Source: Candidatus Kaiserbacteria bacterium RIFCSPHIGHO2_02_FULL_49_34 (GTDB taxonomy: Bacteria; Patescibacteriota; Minisyncoccia; Phycocordibacterales; UBA918). Taken from it: a stretch of DNA of 59,040 nucleotides. Under the pieces are notes generated by a model, which saw only the letters and a list, made by a program, of their open reading frames with translations, ran no database searches and was not told the DNA's origin. Below, one piece after another: positions 4,932-53,464 of this stretch (positions within the stretch are counted from its first letter, which is position 1; the number at the start of each line of letters is the position of its first letter). The stretch lies in assembly GCA_001781205.1 (NCBI GenBank), contig MFLE01000017.1, positions 1-59,040 on the forward strand. The letters run 5' to 3'. The translations under genes were made by a program, and so were the position numbers.

Positions 4932-5052
4932 TGTCCCGTGTTATTTTTTAGGTTGCATTTTTTTCGTTTTCGTATACACTGTGCGCAATCGAGGAACAGA
5001 GGCTCTTGTAGCTCAGATTCCCCGCAGAAGGACTTGTTCCTCTCTGCGAATC

Positions 5053-5123
5053 GCGGCCATGGTTAAGTGGTATAATGCGGCCTTGCCAAGGCTGAGTCGG
5101 GAGTTCGATTCTCCCTGGCCGCA
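5053..5123 (+). tRNA. tRNA-Gly (anticodon GCC)
   Basis: Hand-folded cloverleaf: acceptor GCGGCCA/TGGCCGC, anticodon loop TTGCCAA, T-arm GGGAG-TTCGATT-CTCCC. No encoded CCA. Confidence 0.9.
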
Positions 5124-5132
5124 CAAAACAAG

Positions 5133-5160
5133 AAAAACAAGGCGTCCAGCCTTGTTTTTC
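5133..5160. terminator. bidirectional intrinsic terminator
   Basis: Stem acaaggc/gccttgt with an A-run upstream and a T-run downstream. It forms the centre of a longer palindrome spanning 5098-5195. Confidence 0.7.
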
Positions 5161-5170
5161 TATGTTTTGT

Positions 5171-5348
5171 GACGAGCCAGGGAGAATCGAACGCCGGAGC
5201 CGGTATACAAGCTTTGTATTGATGTGAAGCTTTAGCGAAACACAATACAAAGGCTTGTCGGCGAGGCGGGGCCGGCAGTGCTTGGCATTTTTGGAGCGAT
5301 AGCGAACATAAAATGCCTAGCAACTGTGGCCGATTCTCCATGGCCGCC
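5171..5348 (-). ncRNA. tRNA-linked structured element, copy A (Gly-type ends)
   Basis: Shares a conserved core with copies at 19139, 19361 and 20086. Its ends, GCCATGGAGAATCG and CGATTCTCCCTGGC, pair with each other and copy the T-arm/acceptor of the adjacent tRNA-Gly. Strand assigned by core alignment only. Confidence 0.45.
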
Positions 5349-5474
5349 TATATTTTATAAGCGCAAGCGAAATAAAATATAGATACACAAATACGTCAAT
5401 TCTCCCGTTCCAACTAAAACACCCCCCAATCCACACCCCTCATTTCCCCACTCCATGCTATACTTCACCAAGAT

Positions 5475-13392: not shown

Positions 13393-13848
13393 TTACGGAC
13401 AAGTAGGATACGTCGTACTAAACCAACTCGCGTTTACGTTCGACCCTCGTTTGCAGAAGGTGTCGTTTGTGGGAAGGAAGCGTTCGAATTTCAAAAGTAT
13501 CCCATACGAATCTCTTTCACTATTCACAATATACTGATAGTCATGATACACACTCGTGCGCGGATCAATCGGGAGCTTCTCAAGGTACTTTGGCACCAAG
13601 AACGGCGCAAGAGCATCCACACTACATGCCGACTCATTACATCCTGGCGGCGATGGGTATCCGTGTACATTATCCCCATGATAGAGTTCGATACCTGTCA
13701 TAAGCGCGGAGATATCATCAGCACGTCGCGCATCCCGTGCCTTTGCCCGAGCATTCGCCAGCGCCGTCAAAACCCCCGACGCCAAAAGCGCAATGATGGT
13801 AATCACCACCATGAGCTCGATGAGTGTAAATCCTCGTACTGTATTCAT
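13393..13848 (-). CDS. type IV pilin / pseudopilin (prepilin N-terminal methylation domain)
   Basis: MNTVRGFTLIELMVVITIIALLA is a class III signal (G/FTLIE) followed by the hydrophobic helix. Confidence 0.85.
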   Translation of the reverse strand: MNTVRGFTLIELMVVITIIALLASGVLTALANARAKARDARRADDISALMTGIELYHGDNVHGYPSPPGCNESACSVDALAPFLVPKYLEKLPIDPRTSVYHDYQYIVNSERDSYGILLKFERFLPTNDTFCKRGSNVNASWFSTTYPTCP

Positions 13849-13903: not shown

Positions 13904-14389
13904 CTATTTGCATGCTCTTACTGCAGCACTAATAATTCCAGGGGCAGTTGTACTACTTACATTTGCACCTCTATAGCATGTTGAGTCATTAGCAGTTGCA
14001 ATATTTGGTGATCGTTCATATTTTATATAGATACCGTACCCGTCCGTATTGCCAATACTCTGATAGCTATAATAATTATCAACATCATTAATAGGATCTA
14101 TAGGAAGTTTATCCAGATAGGCAGGAACAAGAACGTTGGTAAGGGTACTTGTAAAAAGAGAGGATGACGGAGTAGATCCCTGGACTGGATACGCGTTATT
14201 ATCATTGTTATAAAGCTCAAGCGCCGTCATAAGCTGACGCACATCCGCCGTACGACGTGCATCACGTGCCTTTGCACGTGCGTTACCAAGCGCAACAAGT
14301 ACTGACGATGCCAAAAGACCAATGATAGTAATAACCACCATGAGCTCGATAAGGGTGAAACCTCGAACTGACGAAGAATGTGTATTCAT
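13904..14389 (-). CDS. type IV pilin / pseudopilin, tandem paralogue
   Basis: SSVRGFTLIELMVVITIIGLLASSVLVALGNARAKARDARR. The N-terminal ~60 aa are nearly identical to the neighbouring pilin, while the C-terminal domain has diverged. Confidence 0.85.
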   Translation of the reverse strand: MNTHSSSVRGFTLIELMVVITIIGLLASSVLVALGNARAKARDARRTADVRQLMTALELYNNDNNAYPVQGSTPSSSLFTSTLTNVLVPAYLDKLPIDPINDVDNYYSYQSIGNTDGYGIYIKYERSPNIATANDSTCYRGANVSSTTAPGIISAAVRACK

Positions 14390-18650: not shown

Positions 18651-19073
18651 TTACGCTTTTCTATCCATTGCATCGTTCGCAAGACGGTCGGCATCTTTGT
18701 TGAATTCGCGGTAGACGTGCTGGAACGTCAGATGTGGGAAGTGTTCTTTTTGGAGTGCTTTTATCTTCTCAAACTGGATACGCAATTCTGGTGACTTCAC
18801 TTTATAGATACCATCCATCTGCCGCTGTACGAGCTGGCTATCAAGACGGATCTCGACGGAGATTTTCTTGGTCTCATCAGCGAACATTGCATGAAGGGTC
18901 TCAAGCGCGACAAGTACCGCCTCATACTCCGCATGATTGTTGGTAGCTACCCCCAAATACTTTGAAACCTCCGCAAGCATATCACCATCCACATTGGTAA
19001 TATACACTCCCAACCCCGAAGGCCCTGGATTCCCCCGCGACCCCCCGTCCGTATATGCAATTATCTTTTTCAT
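18651..19073 (-). CDS. rnhA: ribonuclease HI
   Basis: YTDGGSRGNPGPSG.., NNHAEYEAV and NKDADRLAN together cover the DEDD catalytic pattern. Confidence 0.85.
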   Translation of the reverse strand: MKKIIAYTDGGSRGNPGPSGLGVYITNVDGDMLAEVSKYLGVATNNHAEYEAVLVALETLHAMFADETKKISVEIRLDSQLVQRQMDGIYKVKSPELRIQFEKIKALQKEHFPHLTFQHVYREFNKDADRLANDAMDRKA

Positions 19074-19138
19074 CCGTGCATTTTACTACAGCGAGAGGAA
19101 AGAAGCCAACAAAAAAGAGCTGGAAGCTCTTTTTTCTG

Positions 19139-19314
19139 TGCCGAGGGCGGGACTCGGTCACAGTTGCTAAGTCTTTTACTTCGCTGACGCTCATAAAAGT
19201 CAAAGCACTGCCGACCCCGACTCGCCGACAAGTATTTCTGTTGTGCTACGCTAACGCTTCACATCAACAGAAATCTTGTATACCAGCTCCGTCGTTCGAG
19301 TCCCGCTCCGGCAG
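19139..19314 (+). ncRNA. tRNA-linked structured element, copy B (Leu-UAA-type ends)
   Basis: Same core as copy A, with compensatory stem changes. Ends CGGGACTCG/CGAGTCCCG pair and mimic the T-arm of tRNA-Leu(UAA). Flanked by hairpin terminators at 19111-19136 and 19328-19352. Confidence 0.45.
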
Positions 19315-19327
19315 AAAATAATCAAAA

Positions 19328-19352
19328 AAGAGCTCGCCGCTCTTGTTTTGTT
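19328..19352. terminator. intrinsic terminator between elements B and C
   Basis: aagagc-tcgcc-gctctt with an A-run and a T-run. Confidence 0.6.
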
Positions 19353-19360
19353 ATTTTCTG

Positions 19361-19544
19361 TGCCGGGAGCGGGACTCGACCCAGAATCATGGACTTTTTA
19401 ATTCGTGCTGACGCACTCTAAAAATCTCATGTTCTTGGTCGGCCACTCGCTTTGCTTGTTCCTTCGCTACCGCTACGGAAACGCAATATGCTCCGTGTCT
19501 TCGAGTCCCGACGTAGGCAAAGCAGTTTGCCTACTCTCCCGGCA
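19361..19544 (+). ncRNA. tRNA-linked structured element, copy C (divergent; Leu-UAA-type ends)
   Basis: Starts with tgccgggagcgggactcga, identical to the reverse complement of the 3-prime end of tRNA-Leu(UAA). Ends with ttcgagtcccg..ctctcccggca. First hairpin is alignable with copy B. Has an extra hairpin taggcaaagcagtttgccta. Confidence 0.4.
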
Positions 19545-19548
19545 CTGT

Positions 19549-19586
19549 GAAAATGTAAAACCGCCCTTAGGCGGTTAACATTTTCT
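19549..19586. terminator. terminator shared by element C and tRNA-Leu(UAA)
   Basis: gaaaatgtaaaaccgcc-ctta-ggcggttaacattttc. A near-identical inverted copy lies at 19820-19857. Confidence 0.65.
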
Positions 19587-19590
19587 GCAG

Positions 19591-19676
19591 TGCCGGGAGC
19601 GGGACTCGAACCCGCACGACCGTATTAGGGTCCAGGAATTTTAAGTCCCCTATGTCTACCATTCCATCATCCCGGC
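19591..19676 (-). tRNA. tRNA-Leu (anticodon UAA)
   Basis: Acceptor GCCGGGA/TCCCGGC, anticodon loop CTTAAAA, long variable arm, T-arm GCGGG-TTCGAGT-CCCGC. Confidence 0.9.
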
Positions 19677-19743: not shown

Positions 19744-19815
19744 GTCTCGGTGGCGAAGTGGTAACGCTGTGGATTGCAAATCCTCCATGCGCGGGTTCGA
19801 TTCCCGCCCGGGACT
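19744..19815 (+). tRNA. tRNA-Cys (anticodon GCA)
   Basis: Acceptor GTCTCGG/CCGGGAC (one G-U pair), anticodon loop TTGCAAA, T-arm GCGGG-TTCGATT-CCCGC. Confidence 0.85.
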
Positions 19816-19819
19816 CATA

Positions 19820-19857
19820 GAAAATGTTAACCGCCCCTTGGCGGTTTTACATTTTCA
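19820..19857. terminator. terminator after tRNA-Cys
   Basis: gaaaatgttaaccgcc-cctt-ggcggttttacattttc. Confidence 0.65.
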
Positions 19858-19956
19858 TGAGTCCCGGGAAGAGGCGAACTGATTCGCCTTGTGACACTTC
19901 GCTTGAAAAAGCAGTAATATTGTGTATACTGCATCGACGTCCACAAGACGACATCT

Positions 19957-20038
19957 GCCCAGGTGTTGAAATTGGTAGACAAGCTACCTTGAGGTGGTAG
20001 TGCCGAGAGGCGTGGAGGTTCAAGTCCTCTCCTGGGCA
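19957..20038 (+). tRNA. tRNA-Leu (anticodon GAG)
   Basis: Acceptor GCCCAGG/CCTGGGC, anticodon loop TTGAGGT, long variable arm, T-arm GGAGG-TTCAAGT-CCTCT. Confidence 0.9.
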
Positions 20039-20044
20039 CAAAAC

Positions 20045-20080
20045 AAAAATTCCCAAAGCGTCTAGCTTTGGGAATTTATT
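20045..20080. terminator. bidirectional terminator
   Basis: attcccaaagc-gtcta-gctttgggaat with A and T runs. It forms the centre of the larger palindrome 20013-20110. Confidence 0.7.
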
Positions 20081-20085
20081 GTTTT

Positions 20086-20256
20086 GCACCCAGGAGAGGA
20101 CTTGAACGCCGGAGCCGGTACACAAGCTTTGTATTGATACGCAGCTTTAGCGCAGCACAATACAAAGACTTGTCGGCGAGGTGGGGTCGGCAGCACTTAG
20201 CAGAATTGGAGCGATAGCGAACAATTCTGTTTAGTGACTGTGACCAAGTCCTCTCC
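20086..20256 (-). ncRNA. tRNA-linked structured element, copy D (Leu-GAG-type ends)
   Basis: Core is near-identical to copy A. Perfect 12-bp closing stem GGAGAGGACTTG/CAAGTCCTCTCC copies the T-arm of the adjacent tRNA-Leu(GAG). Confidence 0.45.
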
Positions 20257-20279
20257 AAAAGTACAGCGTAAAAATTAAT

Positions 20280-26425: not shown

Positions 26426-26501
26426 CCGCCTATAGCTCAGTTGGTAGAGCGCGAAGCTTATACCTTCGTGGTCCCAGGTTCGAGTCCTGGTGGGCGGACC
26501 A
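26426..26501 (+). tRNA. tRNA-Ile (anticodon UAU), CCA encoded
   Basis: Acceptor CCGCCTA/TGGGCGG, D-arm GCTCAGTTGGTAGAGC, anticodon stem-loop CGAAG-CTTATAC-CTTCG, T-arm CCAGG-TTCGAGT-CCTGG. Confidence 0.8.
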
Positions 26502-26514
26502 AATCTTTAATCAT

Positions 26515-26555
26515 ATACCTCTGATGTCCATGGTTCGAGTCCATGAGGGCGGACA
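26515..26555 (+). pseudogene. tRNA 3-prime-half fragment (Ile-like), no matching 5-prime half
   Basis: ATACCTCTGATGTCCATGGTTCGAGTCCATGAGGGCGGACA parallels the 3-prime half of the preceding tRNA-Ile, and the T-stem is kept by compensatory changes. Confidence 0.5.
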
Positions 26556-26604
26556 AAGTATTGAAGTACGTGAATATATAAAATCGCCTGCTTTCTAGGC
26601 GATT

Positions 26605-31070: not shown

Positions 31071-32081
31071 ATGGAATTAAGTCTTGAAGAAATTGCGCGA
31101 CAGAATGTTTCTCATATCGTAACGCAGGCACTACAACACACTTCTGCACAAAAGGCGGTTATTATTTTTGATACGCAGTTTGGTTTAACGCGGATGGTGG
31201 CTAATGCGTATCGAGTAATGCTTCCTGATGCTGTGCGCATTGATTTTGATATGTCTTCAAAAGAAGAAATTCTTGCGGCGTTTGACTTACTTTCTCCGGG
31301 CGATTTGGTTATTATGGTGCAATCAACGAATTTTCGATTGAATGATTTTCGTATTCGTTTGCATTTGTTCGCAAAGAAATTGAAAGTTATTGAGCATGCG
31401 CGACTTGCGCGGAACACTGAAGAGACTTGGGCGACCTATATTCATGCCCTTGCATACGACCAAACGTGGTATCACGAGACAGGTCATGGACTAAAGAATA
31501 TTCTTGATAGCGCGCAAGAGCTTCGATATGAATCAGGTGATGCAGTACTTGTGGTCAAGGACGGACTCGAAGCTGCAAGTTTGAATATCGGCGATTATAC
31601 CGGTATGGAAAATGTTGGTGGCTCCTTCCCTATTGGCGAAGTATTTACTGAGGCAAAAGACCTGACAAAACTCAATGGTTCTGTGTATATCGACATTTTT
31701 GCCGATACGAACTTTGAAATCGAAAAACACGAGCCATTTCGTGTTGATATTGCTGAGGGGCTCATTGTTGGATACGGAGAAAACACACCGCAGCTTTTTA
31801 AAGACATTATCGAGAAAATTAAGGAGGAAGAACGTCCAATTATCCGTGAACTTGGTTTTGGACTCAATCGTGCGATTACGCGAGAGAATTTTTTGAATGA
31901 CATCACTGCGTTTGAGCGTAATCTTGGTATGCATTTTTCAATTGGTGAGAAGCATAGCATCTATAAAAAGCCGGGGATTAAGGCATATAAGGCAAGGTAT
32001 CATATTGATGTGTTCCCTGTAATTGATCGCGTACTTGCCGATGGTGTGGTGATTTTTGAGGATGGAAGGCATATGCTCTAG
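31071..32081 (+). CDS. aminopeptidase-like protein (M29/AmpS-like, tentative)
   Basis: Start taken at MELSLEEIA. GGSFPIGEVFTEA resembles the M29 motif around the metal site. The assignment is tentative. Confidence 0.45.
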   Translation: MELSLEEIARQNVSHIVTQALQHTSAQKAVIIFDTQFGLTRMVANAYRVMLPDAVRIDFDMSSKEEILAAFDLLSPGDLVIMVQSTNFRLNDFRIRLHLFAKKLKVIEHARLARNTEETWATYIHALAYDQTWYHETGHGLKNILDSAQELRYESGDAVLVVKDGLEAASLNIGDYTGMENVGGSFPIGEVFTEAKDLTKLNGSVYIDIFADTNFEIEKHEPFRVDIAEGLIVGYGENTPQLFKDIIEKIKEEERPIIRELGFGLNRAITRENFLNDITAFERNLGMHFSIGEKHSIYKKPGIKAYKARYHIDVFPVIDRVLADGVVIFEDGRHML

Positions 32082-32082
32082 C

Positions 32083-32205
32083 TCTGGATCCCGCCAGGAT
32101 GACAAATGTTGGGTACGCTGTTTAAAATTAACAAATGGTTAAAATCGATTTTAATCATTACTTAATTTGTAGGCATATACCCTCATTTTGTCATCCTGGC
32201 GGGAT
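32083..32205. mobile_element. MITE-like inverted-repeat element, copy 1
   Basis: 19-bp perfect terminal inverted repeat atcccgccaggatgacaaa / tttgtcatcctggcgggat around the central sequence ggttaaaatcgattttaa. A partial extra arm (ctggatgttaaaatcgg) lies at 32222-32238. Confidence 0.6.
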
Positions 32206-39796: not shown

Positions 39797-39837
39797 AACC
39801 GCTTTAACTACCACTCCCACAAAAGCTACACCCGTAA

Positions 39838-40080
39838 CTTTTGTCATCCTGTAAGGACCCAGAGCGAGAATGCAGGCCCTCGGGCTTTTCATTTACCACC
39901 ATAAAGAAGTTCAACGTAATCGCTCCTTATAAAACAAAATAATAACTCGAGTTTTGTCAGTTCCCGCTCTGGATCCCGACAGGATGAGGAGGTGAATTGG
40001 TACGAAGTACCAAGAGAGGCTGCCCTGGGGTACAAAATGAGGGCAAAGTGCCTAAAAGTTGCACGTGGTTAAAATCGCAC
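39838..40080. mobile_element. mosaic of MITE-like element arms (copy 2, rearranged and truncated)
   Basis: A 3-prime-type arm ttttgtcatcctgtaaggacccagagcg (39838-39865) precedes a 5-prime-type arm cgctctggatcccgacaggatga (39965-39987). The element stops in the middle of its central palindrome (ggttaaaatcg|cac) at 40080. Confidence 0.55.
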
Positions 40081-49776: not shown

Positions 49777-49905
49777 CTCTGGATCCCGTCAGGATAAAAA
49801 AATGAAGGGAATAAGTTATGAATTTAGTGATGGTTAAAATCGATTTTAACCATCACATAATTTAAAACATCACACTTAACATTTGTTGTCTTGACAGGAT
49901 CCAGG
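49777..49905. mobile_element. MITE-like inverted-repeat element, copy 3
   Basis: Arms ctctggatcccgtcaggat / ttgacaggatccag around the central palindrome ggttaaaatcgattttaacc. Confidence 0.55.
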
Positions 49906-50362: not shown

Positions 50363-51454
50363 CTACCTATTCATTGGCATAACGAGATACCTAAGTGACT
50401 TATCATATACCCCTTCAATAACCATTGGACGACCTATACCGGTAAAATGCACCGTAAGACTGTCATCGGTGATGTAATTAAGAATATCTTGTAGGTATTT
50501 TTGATTTACGGAAATAGAAATATCTGAGCCTTCTTGTGCAATAGTAATGTTTTCTTCAGTCATACCTGTATCTCCTTTTGAAGAAAGATTTAAAGTACCG
50601 TTTGTGAGTGTGAGAGTGAGTTGTGAGAATTTATTCAAGAAAACGTTCGTACGACGAAGTGCATTCACTACATCCTGCACTAAAATGGTTGCATGTGTTG
50701 AAAATTCCTTAGGCATGATTTGATTGTAATCTGGGAAATTACCTGCAACCGAACGAGAAGTAATCTGAATATGCCCCCAGCTCAAAACACACTGGTTTTC
50801 GGCAATGGTAAGCTTCGGGTCATCTTTGTTGCTCTCAGCTATTTTCGCGAGTTCTAGGGCGTTTTTTGCGGGAATGAGGATGTGTCCTGTGAGAACTACG
50901 TTTGCCATCGGGATTGTTTTCTCTGCAAGGCGAAATGAGTCAGTTGCAACAAAGGTGAGGGTATTTTCTTTCTTCTGATAGATATACACACAACCTAGCT
51001 CTGGTTTGATAGAATTTTGTGATGCGGCAAATGCTACTGTTTTAATACCATACGCAAAATTCTTACCAGACACATTGTAGGCATCACCTTCAATCACCGG
51101 AAGGCTTGGAAAATCACTCGCATTCTGTGTAGCGATTGATGTTTTTGATGTTTTTGTAGTAATAGTAAGAGTATCACCTTCTGCGAAGAGTGTGACCTCT
51201 GGATGGGTAATAAGTGAGATGGTTTGCAGGAGCACATGTGCTGGTACTGCAATAGATCCTTCGTGCTCAATACGACCCTTCACCGTTCCTTCAACACCAA
51301 TCTCAAGGTTTGTTGCACGATAGGTAATCACTCCTTCTGCTGACGCATGTAAATACACACACTGGAGAATAGGGAGTGTTGGATGTTTGATGCTGACACG
51401 AGAGACTATCTCAAGAACACTACGTAACTCTTCGGTGGGGATGTGGATATGCAT
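50363..51454 (-). CDS. dnaN: DNA polymerase III beta sliding clamp
   Basis: 363 aa with three-domain clamp length. The N-terminus ..LEIVSRVSIKHPTLPILQCVYL.. and the position next to dnaA are typical. Confidence 0.9.
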   Translation of the reverse strand: MHIHIPTEELRSVLEIVSRVSIKHPTLPILQCVYLHASAEGVITYRATNLEIGVEGTVKGRIEHEGSIAVPAHVLLQTISLITHPEVTLFAEGDTLTITTKTSKTSIATQNASDFPSLPVIEGDAYNVSGKNFAYGIKTVAFAASQNSIKPELGCVYIYQKKENTLTFVATDSFRLAEKTIPMANVVLTGHILIPAKNALELAKIAESNKDDPKLTIAENQCVLSWGHIQITSRSVAGNFPDYNQIMPKEFSTHATILVQDVVNALRRTNVFLNKFSQLTLTLTNGTLNLSSKGDTGMTEENITIAQEGSDISISVNQKYLQDILNYITDDSLTVHFTGIGRPMVIEGVYDKSLRYLVMPMNR

Positions 51455-51765
51455 AGCGGGTGGTGATTACTTTTTTATTTTTAAAATTTTTTACTACTCT
51501 TATTAGCACTGTGGACGGTGTGGATAAGACGAGTATAACACAGGAATACAAGGTGGTTTGACGAGTCCTCTGTGTGGATAGCTTGATGAGGGGGTTGTGG
51601 ATACGTTTGGTGGAATGTGGATAACTTTATCATCTCTGTGTAAGAGAGGTGTTCGGTGTGGATAACTTTTGAGCTACCCACACCTTTTTAGGAGGTTATC
51701 CACAGGGTAGTATGAGAGTTATCCACAGAGTTTTCCACGTTATCCACAAGCTTATCCACAGTTTT
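51455..51765. other. oriC: DnaA-box cluster plus AT-rich unwinding region
   Basis: Perfect TTATCCACA or its complement at 51519, 51616, 51657, 51696, 51719, 51740 and 51752, plus one-mismatch boxes at 51573 and 51596. AT-rich tract at 51471-51505. Confidence 0.85.
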
Positions 51766-53166
51766 TTAACGGAATAAGTCGCGGATTCGGTTTATCTCTC
51801 GGGGTAATGTCTCGTCTGTCTTTAGATCTTCTTTAATACGTTCACAGGAGTGGATAACTGTTGAGTGGTCACGACCACCCATAGCAGCACCGATATTTGG
51901 GAATGAAATCTGAAAATCTTCACGGAGAATATACATAATCAGCTGACGCGGGCGCATGATATCTTTTTGACGTGTCTTTTTATGAAGATCTTCAATGGTG
52001 AGATTATAGAGTTTTGCTATTTTTTCAACAATATCACGTACAGAAAGGGTTGTTCTTGGTTTTAAGCTTACCTCTACAATTCCCTTCACTGCTTCATATG
52101 AGAGGGGTTTCCCTGCAACTTCAGATTGAATAATGACAGAATTAAGCATTCCTTCGAGTTCTCGGATATTTCCGTCGAGTGATTTTGCAATAAATGCAAC
52201 AATATTATCGTCAAGGGAAATACCACGATGTGCGAGCTTTGCTGAAATAATTGCAGTTCTTGATTCAAGGTCGGGTTTTGGGATGTCTATAATCATACCC
52301 TGATTAAAACGGGAGCGGAGGCGATCTTCAAGCCCTTCGAGAAGCGCGGGATGAATATCACTTGAAAATACAATCTGTTTATTGAGATCGTGGAACGCAT
52401 TAAAAAGATGGAAAAGCTCCTCTTGTGTTTTGTCTTTATAGGAAAGGAATTGAATATCGTCGATAATAATCGCATCATACGCACGATAGGTATCTTTGAA
52501 TTTATTTGCATTTCCTGACTGAATTGCGTTGAAGTAGTCAACAGCAAAACGCTCAGAGGTGACGTAAAACACCTTTAAGCCGCGCTTTTTAAGGCTGTTA
52601 CCTACTGCTTGTGTGAGGTGTGTTTTTCCGTGCCCTGTTTGTCCATAAATAAAGAGTGGGTTATAGACAATGCCGGGACGTTCAACAACAGCTTTTGCAG
52701 CCGCGTGGGCAAGCTGATTAAAAGGACCGACAACAAATGATTCGAACTGATATTTTGGGTTCAGATTATCAGAACGATCAACATAATACTCATCGAGTGG
52801 AATGACTGCAGAAGGAGTTCGAGCACGCATTTTTTCTTTTTCAATACGCTCCGCTTGGTTTGGTGGGGTACGATGGGTAACACTAAAATTTACACCACGA
52901 ACACCTGGTTCTTTCTCACGAAGGATGCGGAGAATTGCAGTACCAAATTTATCGCGTAGATAATCACGCACAAAAATAGAAGGAGCGCCCACGGTAATAG
53001 TGCCGGCGGCAAACGTGGTGATGAAGGTGTCGCGAAACCAAGCTTTATTTGCAGGACTTGTATCAACACTCACTTCCTGCAGGGTTTCGTCCCAGAGAGT
53101 GAGTAGGTCACGTGAGAGTTCCGACAATTCTTCGTCTTCATGCAGGGTGGCATGCTGGGTATTCAT
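51766..53166 (-). CDS. dnaA: chromosomal replication initiator DnaA
   Basis: Walker A GQTGHGKTH, IIDDIQF, the sensor region, and the C-terminal DNA-binding domain ..GGRDHSTVIHSCERI. Start taken at MNTQHATL. Confidence 0.95.
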   Translation of the reverse strand: MNTQHATLHEDEELSELSRDLLTLWDETLQEVSVDTSPANKAWFRDTFITTFAAGTITVGAPSIFVRDYLRDKFGTAILRILREKEPGVRGVNFSVTHRTPPNQAERIEKEKMRARTPSAVIPLDEYYVDRSDNLNPKYQFESFVVGPFNQLAHAAAKAVVERPGIVYNPLFIYGQTGHGKTHLTQAVGNSLKKRGLKVFYVTSERFAVDYFNAIQSGNANKFKDTYRAYDAIIIDDIQFLSYKDKTQEELFHLFNAFHDLNKQIVFSSDIHPALLEGLEDRLRSRFNQGMIIDIPKPDLESRTAIISAKLAHRGISLDDNIVAFIAKSLDGNIRELEGMLNSVIIQSEVAGKPLSYEAVKGIVEVSLKPRTTLSVRDIVEKIAKLYNLTIEDLHKKTRQKDIMRPRQLIMYILREDFQISFPNIGAAMGGRDHSTVIHSCERIKEDLKTDETLPREINRIRDLFR

Positions 53167-53261
53167 ACTAGGTAGTATAAACAATAGAAAATGAAAAAGC
53201 AAAGAGCATTCACCCTTTTTGCCCTTGCGTTTTAAAAAAAAGTAGGTATAGTACCACCATT

Positions 53262-53432
53262 ATGGCAACGAAGAAAACCTATCAGCCGAGTAAGCTCAAG
53301 CGTGCACGCACTCACGGCTTCCTTGTGCGTATGAAATCACCAAGTGGTGCAAACATTATCCAGGCACGTCGTCGTAAGGGACGCGCGGTTCTTGCGGTTA
53401 CTCCTACAAAGAAACGCGTAACGACTAAATAA
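53262..53432 (+). CDS. rpmH: 50S ribosomal protein L34
   Basis: Below the ORF-track length cut-off. My translation is [56 protein letters not shown]. Confidence 0.85.
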
Positions 53433-53436
53433 CAGA

Positions 53437-53464
53437 AAATCCCGTGCTTTACGGGATTTTTTGT
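53437..53464 (+). terminator. intrinsic terminator or attenuator after rpmH
   Basis: aaaatcccgtgctttacgggatttttt. Confidence 0.7.

Follow-up and report, generated by a model that had tools for sequence, protein, structure and literature searches.

In the tRNA-like domain of tmRNA, in YrlA, in MALAT1 mascRNA and in the tRNA-like structures at viral 3′ ends, the paired 5′ and 3′ ends of the RNA form an acceptor-like helix on a T-like helix, with the rest of the molecule emerging from it. On the level of DNA, integrative elements that use tRNA 3′ ends are found on the 3′ side of tRNA genes, show a direct repeat reaching from the T-loop to the 3′ end and form tandem arrays in which the older copies are distal. 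Features of both kinds come together in contig MFLE01000017.1 of Candidatus Kaiserbacteria bacterium RIFCSPHIGHO2_02_FULL_49_34, of which the whole stretch from position 1 to 59,040 was analyzed here (59,040 nucleotides, hereafter called the window). Two elements, designated B (19139-19314) and C (19361-19544), follow each other head to tail behind the gene of tRNA-Leu(UAA). They belong to an undescribed family of tRNA-linked structured elements of about 175 nucleotides (nt) in Kaiserbacteria-like Parcubacteria, which has four copies in the window (A behind tRNA-Gly(GCC), B, C, and D behind tRNA-Leu(GAG)) and was also found in five or more genomes or metagenome contigs of Kaiserbacteria-like relatives (Patescibacteria). 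Every copy follows directly on a tRNA gene with its hairpin terminator, or on another element placed in this way, and nine different tRNAs were found as neighbors. The segment around B and C is organized as follows, with scores referring to R1, a covariance model built from seven copies.

19590-19676, minus strand: tRNA-Leu(UAA) (ARAGORN and Rfam), source of the arm sequences of B and C; CCA not encoded.
19548-19586, no strand assigned: bidirectional terminator T2 between tRNA-Leu(UAA) and C (terminator scan).
19361-19544, minus strand: element C, subfamily 2 (R1 41.2 bits, E 2e-9); sense arm 19361-19379, identical to positions 55-73 of tRNA-Leu(UAA); anti-arm 19500-19544, split by an extra hairpin.
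19515-19532, minus strand: extra hairpin of subfamily 2 in C, AGGCAAA-CUGC-UUUGCCU.
19322-19352, no strand assigned: hairpin terminator T1 between C and B, terminator-like on both strands (terminator scan).
19139-19314, minus strand: element B, subfamily 1 (R1 188.6 bits); in the minus-strand reading, 5′ anti-arm 19294-19313, hairpin 2 with basal stem 19228-19279, hairpin 1 19171-19201 and 3′ sense arm 19139-19157.
19111-19136, no strand assigned: hairpin T0, distal, beyond B; bidirectional and terminator-like (terminator scan).

An initial annotation of this segment had placed B and C head to tail and bracketed by hairpins, and the coordinates obtained for T0, T1, and T2 agree with this arrangement. 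T0 resembles T1 and is located just upstream of the RNase HI promoter. The origin assigned to the element ends was likewise borne out. C starts with tgccgggagcgggactcga, the reverse complement of the tRNA-Leu(UAA) 3′ end with all 19 bases identical, as had been stated, and B starts with tgccgagggcgggactcgg, a close variant of it; both elements are closed by a sense copy of the same 3′ end, which matches at 19 of 19 positions in C and at about 16 of 19 in B. The trailer bases cagaaaa are present after B, after C and after tRNA-Leu(UAA), and the sense arm of C, T1, and the anti-arm of B together form a palindrome with arms of 34 nt.

Read on the strand of the tRNA, the complete unit consists of the tRNA gene, a hairpin terminator, an antisense 5′ arm, a core and a sense 3′ arm. 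The core of about 130 nt forms two long irregular hairpins around a three-way junction (Y shape), with the motif RGC-NNNA-GCGAA common to both hairpin tips, and is closed by the helix of the two arms. Positions ~53-73 of the tRNA recur in antisense in the 5′ arm and positions 56-73 as a sense copy in the 3′ arm, so that this closing helix reproduces the acceptor-stem/T-stem stack of the adjoining tRNA, with the core replacing the T-loop. When both arms were compared with 17 tRNA 3′ ends, the best-matching tRNA for both was the neighbor or its orthologue in 10 of 11 elements (the exception being the sense arm of the tRNA-Val element in genome L001), in line with the earlier view that the ends are tRNA-derived and specific to the adjoining tRNA. 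Since both arms fit each new neighbor, they must be copied from the target, and since they hold trailer bases and no CCA, the template has to be the gene or a precursor rather than the mature tRNA. Each terminator is the center of a palindrome with arms of 34-40 nt, which stretches from the T-loop of the tRNA over trailer and terminator as far as the anti-arm. An encoded CCA is missing in 11 of the 12 tRNA genes that have an element behind them and present in four of the six without one, counted over a small and non-independent sample (the window and the genomes or contigs L001, L002, L012, L015, L020, and L034).

That the core is under selection for its fold follows from a set of seven full subfamily-1 copies. 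The RNAalifold consensus contains 66 pairs, of which 32 have changed on either side, compared with 18.7±2.2 such pairs in shuffles; paired cells amount to 95.5%, compared with 82.3±1.1% in shuffles, and neither value was reached in any of 500 shuffles. In controls in which the pairing partner was slid by one to three columns, only 4-9 double-changed pairs and 31-44% paired cells remained, so that the covariation exceeds both types of control, as is demanded of a structured RNA. It is found in every helix and not only in the arms, where it is trivial. The short junction helix, for example, reads CGCC/GGCG in A, CGAC/GUCG in B, and CGGC/GCCG in L001, and a further helix is compensated between GGCC/GGCC and GGUC/GACC. 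The compensatory changes previously named for hairpins 1 and 2 are real. Loops and joining sequences had been described as conserved, and indeed 30 of the 39 unpaired core columns are invariant (77%), compared with 58 of the 104 paired ones. Constrained unpaired positions of this kind are the signature of a selected fold and not of a recently spread repeat.

A peptide gene was ruled out, as no frame is open in all copies and no consistent start codon exists. Together with the covarying stems, this upholds the assignment to a structured nucleic-acid family instead of a peptide gene or a drifting repeat. Three open reading frames (ORFs) overlap elements, namely 19055-19321 (plus strand, 88 amino acids, over B), 20076-20258 (minus strand, 60 amino acids, over D), and 4948-5250 (minus strand, 100 amino acids, over A); their frames are not conserved across copies, and all three might be miscalled as genes. 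A kink-turn at the hairpin tips was considered and dropped on inspection by eye, the internal loop being 2×3 rather than a 3-nt bulge with two G·A pairs.

With regard to the functional strand, several measures point to that of the tRNA. The consensus folding energy is -83.2 kcal/mol on the tRNA strand compared with -69.2 kcal/mol on the opposite one, and the minimum free energy of 11 out of 12 copies is lower on the tRNA strand, by 6-16 kcal/mol. Among the non-Watson-Crick cells of the core, G·U accounts for 20 and A·C for 4 when the tRNA strand is read, and six of seven copies retain one particular G·U; counted as distinct events the numbers are 20 and 10 (binomial p≈0.05), which makes for a moderately significant strand test whose G·U count, moreover, originates in part from an alignment fitted to a model of that very strand. 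Taken together, these comparisons indicate that the functional strand is likely the one of the tRNA, that is the minus strand of the window for B and C. Both elements would therefore be co-directional with tRNA-Leu(UAA), and the earlier plus-strand reading, in which this gene was convergent to them, is not favored by either the G·U and A·C counts or the folding energies. The orientation of the elements tracks the tRNA and not replication, since A and D (plus) and B and C (minus) lie within one replichore: the region 50363-53460 holds dnaN (50363-51454, minus) and dnaA (51766-53202, minus), and together with a sign change of the GC skew near 50 kb this indicates that a chromosomal replication origin is probably located within the window.

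A strand bias would also fit if the fold were used as single-stranded DNA by a structure-specific recombinase or transposase encoded elsewhere, as is the case for integron attC sites and for the hairpins at the ends of IS200/IS605-type miniature elements, because G·T pairs are tolerated in folded DNA. Heavy tRNA transcription would then expose the tRNA-sense (non-template) strand. However, the observed orientation, with A and D opposed to B and C in one replichore, is unlike that of lagging-strand-dependent elements. The sequences TTCGCTA / TAGCGAA on both hairpin tips are what a dimeric protein binding two similar hairpins might require, and new copies sit next to the target with the old ones pushed distally, as in integron arrays; still, conserved unpaired nucleotides over a Y-shaped core of 130 nt exceed the needs of attC and IS200 systems. 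Similarly, the boundary between arm and core at the T-loop GTT/AAC is reminiscent of attC core sites, yet known attC and IS200-type ends are not re-templated from their target. Finally, a DNA element would not have to possess a promoter, but no enzyme of the required type was found among the window ORFs scanned. On balance, we regard such a DNA element as an improbable explanation that nevertheless deserves to be kept in sight.

C had been described as a more divergent member with an extra hairpin in its 3′ arm. The hairpin (19515-19532) is real and kept in a second genome, but on the tRNA strand it lies in the 5′ arm, and, judged by sequence comparison, C is not a decayed B but a member of a separate conserved subfamily. 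The other members of this subfamily 2 are located at positions 4636-4806 of L002, behind tRNA-Leu(GAG), and at positions 3257-3535 of L012, behind tRNA-Phe. C and the L002 element are 81% identical over the alignment, and their extra hairpin AGGCAAACUGCUUUGCCU is identical although their arms fit different tRNAs, Leu-UAA and Leu-GAG, respectively. The tRNA-Phe element of L012 follows the same design with another stem (AAAGGCGC/GCGCCUUU), the loop still being CUGC, and a hairpin in a remnant behind tRNA-Cys of the window has a covarying stem and the loop CUGA. In all cases with a full element (C, L002, and L012-Phe) the extra hairpin separates the stretch imitating the acceptor 5′ strand from that imitating the T-stem 5′ strand, with the insertion within 1 nt of the acceptor/T-stem boundary. 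On the tRNA strand it exits at the 7/49 junction, which in a real tRNA is the point of departure of the D and anticodon arms, and generates a tRNA-like three-way junction. As the opposite strand puts the hairpin into the 3′ strand at 65/66, a position without tRNA counterpart, its location is an independent argument for the tRNA strand.

The remaining features of the family in the window are the following.

5170-5348, plus strand: element A, subfamily 1 (R1 196.7 bits), behind tRNA-Gly(GCC) (5053-5124, plus strand) and a terminator (5125-5169).
5350-5382: AT-rich hairpin 3′ of A.
20086-20259, plus strand: element D, subfamily 1 (R1 184.2 bits), behind tRNA-Leu(GAG) (19957-20039, plus strand) and a terminator (20040-20085); sense arm cut back to the T-stem part.
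19744-19816, plus strand: tRNA-Cys (ARAGORN and Rfam).
19858-19895, plus strand: remnant behind tRNA-Cys, with anti-acceptor arm tgagtcccggg and CUGA-loop hairpin; only the 5′ end of a subfamily-2 element.

The model R1 recovers A, B, and D at 184-197 bits and C at 41 bits (E 2e-9), and no further copies were found with it in the window. For the core motif CTGCCGNCCCCNNCTCGCCGACAAG, three occurrences were counted in the window, compared with 0.00 expected ones. Outside the window, R1 also recovers L012-Phe, the second of two divergent copies behind tRNA-Ser in L001 (a Patescibacteria metagenome-assembled genome found by genome scan, which has the tRNA-Val element as well), and an element in L034. 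A metagenome scan with a 20-base core motif matched 14 loci, of which only three were genuine: L012, where a type-II tRNA has an element in addition to the long variant behind tRNA-Phe, L015, where the element adjoins tRNA-Trp, and L020, where it adjoins tRNA-Gly(UCC). The other 11 were chance matches in GC-rich coding DNA. L002, L034, and L037 represent a sister lineage with about 86-88% protein identity to the window, and in L034 the orthologous tRNA-Gly(GCC) site holds a third core subtype. At this site (L034 8941-9172), anti-arm, terminator and distal AT hairpin are conserved, the core reaches 55 bits with R1, and a 55-nt 3′ remnant of type 1 follows.

By its neighboring proteins, the window is assigned to Kaiserbacteria-like Parcubacteria (Patescibacteria), the nearest named relatives of RNase HI and PrsW being from ‘Candidatus Kaiserbacteria’. 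Six contigs carrying the RNase HI gene of the window (four from JGI and ENA metagenome samples and two from Logan run assemblies) represent the same strain and show neither presence/absence differences nor substitutions in the elements. The surroundings of RNase HI homologues at 64-75% identity (L003, L006, L027, and L028) and of a PrsW homologue at 65% (L038) contain no tRNAs or elements. blastn of element A against phage and plasmid collections gave no match, and viral contigs scanned with core motifs gave nothing or, at most, five chance matches. Rfam 15 has no family at gathering threshold over A-D, with only sub-threshold matches of microRNA-type hairpins to the palindromes at E≤10; ARAGORN and Rfam see only six true tRNAs in the window and make no tRNA or tmRNA call over A-D. 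Full-text searches of the literature did not turn up any description of such elements.

The earlier description as a structured family holds, but it did not include the turnover by which the elements resemble mobile ones. Core identity is 0.88 between D (Leu-GAG) and the L015 element (Trp) and 0.86 between A and the L020 element, that is between different genomes and tRNA partners, and 0.73-0.84 among A, B, and D within the window. As cores from different genomes are as alike as copies within the window, the tRNA partner must have changed while the core diverged by about 12%. Terminators travel with the core lineages: the loop GCGTCYAGC is common to A, D, L012, and L034 with covarying stems, the motif ccaaaaaatctgcga is common to L015 and L020, and the tRNA-Cys terminator (19819-19857) is 90% identical to T2 (19548-19586) in inverted orientation. 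In tandem piles the better-preserved copy lies next to the tRNA, as for C with its perfect sense arm followed by the degraded B. Further piles are formed by the two copies behind tRNA-Ser in L001, by a type-1 element and then a type-2 fragment in L020, and by the type-3 element and type-1 remnant of L034. In the sister genome L002, no element is present behind tRNA-Leu(UAA) or tRNA-Cys and type 2 replaces type 1 behind tRNA-Leu(GAG), and the Leu(UAA)-Cys segment, which in the window is flanked by inverted terminators, is inverted relative to L002. Roughly half of the tRNAs have an element, and several assemblies end at elements. From these comparisons, the family behaves like something that moves. 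In L015, the tRNA-Trp 3′ end and the whole terminator are directly repeated beyond the element (24-90 and 246-312, about 65 bp), which could be a signature of insertion or duplication.

This repeat could also be read, together with the terminator-centered palindromes that run from T-loop to anti-arm with arms of 34-40 nt, as the trace of a passive process, i.e., of quasi-palindrome extension, slippage and tandem duplication at tRNA terminators, with the core being functionless. The lineage does contain tandem pseudo-tRNA-Met copies and a tRNA-Ile half duplication. Such a process, however, explains neither a 130-nt core that retains 73-92% identity across genomes and partners, with 77% of its unpaired positions invariant and its stems compensated, nor the strand asymmetry, nor the existence of two or three conserved subfamilies, and this by-product explanation is therefore very unlikely and already largely contradicted. 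Another idea is that the elements are remnants of integrase-borne islands in tRNA genes, the sense arm corresponding to a tRNA 3′ end that was displaced as attR and the rest being what deletion of the island left behind. In its extent, the direct repeat made up of tRNA positions 56-73 and the sense arm is like those reported for attachment sites of the T-loop class, and growth in tandem at tRNA genes is also typical of elements of this kind; but an island origin leaves the inverted anti-arm unexplained, covariation as a Y-shaped fold is not a property of attachment sites, the same content of about 175 nt with identical boundaries is found at nine different tRNAs, and neither integrase nor island genes were found among the window ORFs scanned. 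We thus attach hardly any probability to it.

Transcription, processing, the way of copying and any benefit to the cell can be inferred from these observations only in the form of a proposal. We tentatively favor, with somewhat less than even confidence, a modular, relocating tRNA-like RNA element that is transcribed by read-through and trimmed by the enzymes acting on tRNA ends. Having no promoter of its own, the element would be transcribed by read-through from the strong tRNA promoter. The tRNA-like closing helix, which resembles a minihelix of the upper half of the tRNA, may then allow its excision by RNase P at the 5′ end and by RNase Z, followed by the CCA-adding enzyme, at the 3′ end; judged from the shape of this helix, processing by RNase P and RNase Z appears plausible. 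The module of terminator, arms and core would relocate and duplicate among tRNA genes, and the arms would be re-templated from the new neighbor, probably by template switching or gene conversion across the terminator-centered palindrome, for which the universally conserved T-loop bases GTTCRA might serve as the outer anchor. Accordingly, the element could be a non-autonomous passenger of tRNA genes, with selection acting on the fold of its RNA.

A number of observations weigh against this proposal, in addition to the moderate outcome of the strand test. A promoter search of the window found no sigma-70-like promoter serving an element on either strand, and on the tRNA strand every element is immediately preceded by a strong intrinsic terminator, so that RNA levels may be very low. 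Folding prediction of a read-through transcript gives as optimum a long hairpin of tRNA 3′ part, terminator and anti-arm, in which the tRNA 5′ strand pairs with the sense arm; the order of co-transcriptional folding would therefore matter. Sense arms are shortened to the T-stem part in D, L020, and L001-Val, and a full acceptor-stem mimic is thus not universal. In addition, the discriminator base is paired in the arms and nucleotides of the trailer are copied into them, which looks more like copying at the DNA level than like selection for an RNase P substrate. Regarding mobility, no filled site with a matching empty site showing insertion was found among the compared loci, and a Pfam scan of 50 window ORFs, plus RNase HI, revealed no reverse transcriptase, integrase or transposase. 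The genes flanking the elements encode RNase HI, PrsW, and DoxX, without any RVT_1 domain.

Some of these points bear on an explanation that involves no mobility, in which the elements are stable host RNAs, each imitating, or pairing in antisense with, the upper half of a single tRNA, with arms kept matched by selection. Such RNAs could be minihelix-like substrates or decoys for aminoacyl-tRNA synthetases, EF-Tu, aminoacyl-tRNA-dependent transferases or tRNA-targeting toxins, or regulators of the maturation of the respective tRNA. Both arms often fit the tRNA independently, as in A, whose sense arm retains TGGCCGC, which is lost from the anti-arm; but a functional mimic would need neither trailer copying nor discriminator pairing. 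The stronger constraint on loops and junctions than on stems, the tRNA-like three-way junction of subfamily 2 and the occurrence of two subfamilies side by side in several genomes would all suit host RNAs, whereas tandem piles, decaying distal copies, truncated arms and the absence of a detectable promoter would not. The element retained at the orthologous tRNA-Gly site of the sister lineage argues for stability; against it, elements accompany only about half of the tRNAs and sister genomes differ in content. Stable host RNAs appear to us an unlikely explanation. Two more far-reaching possibilities, which do not exclude each other, are conceivable but doubtful: the family might be a new class of element, a conserved RNA core moving among tRNA genes that has both termini rebuilt from the 3′ end of each host tRNA, always mimics its acceptor/T-arm and is excised by tRNA processing, and its members might be tRNA-specific minihelix RNAs, CCA-tailed and perhaps aminoacylated or acting as decoys, with one “shadow” RNA per tRNA species in a bacterium with a minimal genome. 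There is a substantial chance that the family is categorically new rather than a variant of a tRNA-like RNA or of a repeat targeting tRNA genes.

If the family is mobile, it would represent a parasite of tRNA genes that carries its own terminator and has termini copied from its target, for which we know of no described bacterial precedent. If it acts as RNA, it would offer a handle on how enzymes of tRNA ends, and perhaps aminoacyl-tRNA synthetases, are exploited in bacteria of the candidate phyla radiation. Either way, assemblies break at tRNA loci, long palindromes and inversions such as that of the Leu(UAA)-Cys segment arise, and the elements are open to misreading as pseudo-tRNAs or as small ORFs like the one of 88 amino acids at 19055-19321.

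Other repeats and tRNA scars were noticed in the course of the analysis. The gene of tRNA-Ile(UAU) is immediately followed by a direct duplicate of its 3′ half, reaching from the anticodon loop as far as the 3′ end, with 73% identity (window 26454-26563) and compensatory T-stem changes (CCCAGG/CCTGG to CCATGG/CCATG). The duplicate has the look of a pseudo-copy of half a tRNA or of an att-like scar. L012 contains two degenerate tandem copies of tRNA-Met(CAU) with terminator at 1183-1505, beside the intact gene, which alone is called by ARAGORN. A second, unrelated repeat family, with the inverted repeat GGATCCCGCCAGGATGACAAA... and the central palindrome GGTTAAAATCGATTTTAACC, is located at 32077-32205, 39836-39996, and 49777-49904 of the window and, in another genome of the lineage, at L012 381-470. 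Lastly, a direct repeat of 173 nt with 71% identity (window 13669-13841 and 14198-14370) lies among genes with pilin-type N-terminal methylation motifs and probably reflects paralogous pseudopilin genes.

Compared with integrative elements at tRNA 3′ ends, the family shares the direct repeat, tRNA positions 56-73 being repeated as sense arm in most copies. It differs from them by its size of about 175 nt plus terminator, by the extra inverted copy of the tRNA end and by one core being present at many tRNAs, and neither a tyrosine nor a serine integrase was found among the 50 window ORFs (Pfam). Miniature transposable elements with inverted repeats (MITEs) and REP/REPIN sequences are likewise small, non-coding and intergenic, have terminal inverted repeats and strong hairpins, break assemblies and vary between strains. 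In contrast to these, the terminal repeats of the present elements are variable, as they come from the adjoining tRNA (arm identity of 0.30-0.70 between copies, compared with 0.73-0.92 for the core), so that no terminal inverted repeats are shared; the stems covary around fixed loops, the copies are old (73-88% identity) and the association with tRNAs is strict. Target-site duplications of fixed length were not observed either, the sole flanking direct repeat being the tRNA 3′ end (18 nt), or 65 bp with the terminator in L015.

Retron msr-msd RNAs resemble the elements in a length of about 170 nt and in being closed by paired terminal inverted repeats (a1/a2), from which hairpin arms emerge, but the elements have many copies per genome, tRNA-derived arms and, in place of a reverse transcriptase gene immediately downstream, RNase HI, PrsW, and DoxX in their flanks. 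With integron attC sites they share strand-specific folds in which structure counts for more than sequence, proximal growth of arrays and GTT/AAC boundaries, whereas their arrays are devoid of cassette ORFs and IntI, their central core is conserved and their arms are target-derived. In comparison to the attC consensus (RYYYAAC / GTTRRRY, with cassettes and intI), the boundaries ATCGAAC / GTTCGAT miss it at one position. As regards IS200/IS605-derived miniature elements (PATE), the observations are two similar hairpins, no TnpA in the window and both orientations in one replichore. As for RNAs released from tRNA transcripts, the 3′ external transcribed spacer (3′ETS) of leuZ in the E. coli glyW-cysT-leuZ transcript is also a functional RNA that originates from a trailer by tRNA processing; such spacers, however, are short, lie upstream of or include the terminator and pair as single-stranded sponges, whereas the elements lie beyond the terminator and are large, structured and tRNA-mimicking.

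In their way of working, the elements would come closest to the tRNA-like structures of tmRNA, YrlA, mascRNA, and the viral RNAs, and release from the transcript by RNase P and RNase Z with CCA addition is plausible for them. Rfam (RF00005, RF00023) and ARAGORN find in the elements neither a cloverleaf nor a tmRNA domain with tag frame. A Y-shaped core takes the place of the T-loop, the elements are multi-copy, and their helix is copied from the adjoining tRNA and hence different in each copy. To our knowledge, such a personalized helix is not displayed by tmRNA, YrlA or viral tRNA-like structures, and if the family is an RNA, it would constitute a new class of bacterial tRNA-like RNAs with an acceptor/T-arm helix personalized to each adjoining tRNA.

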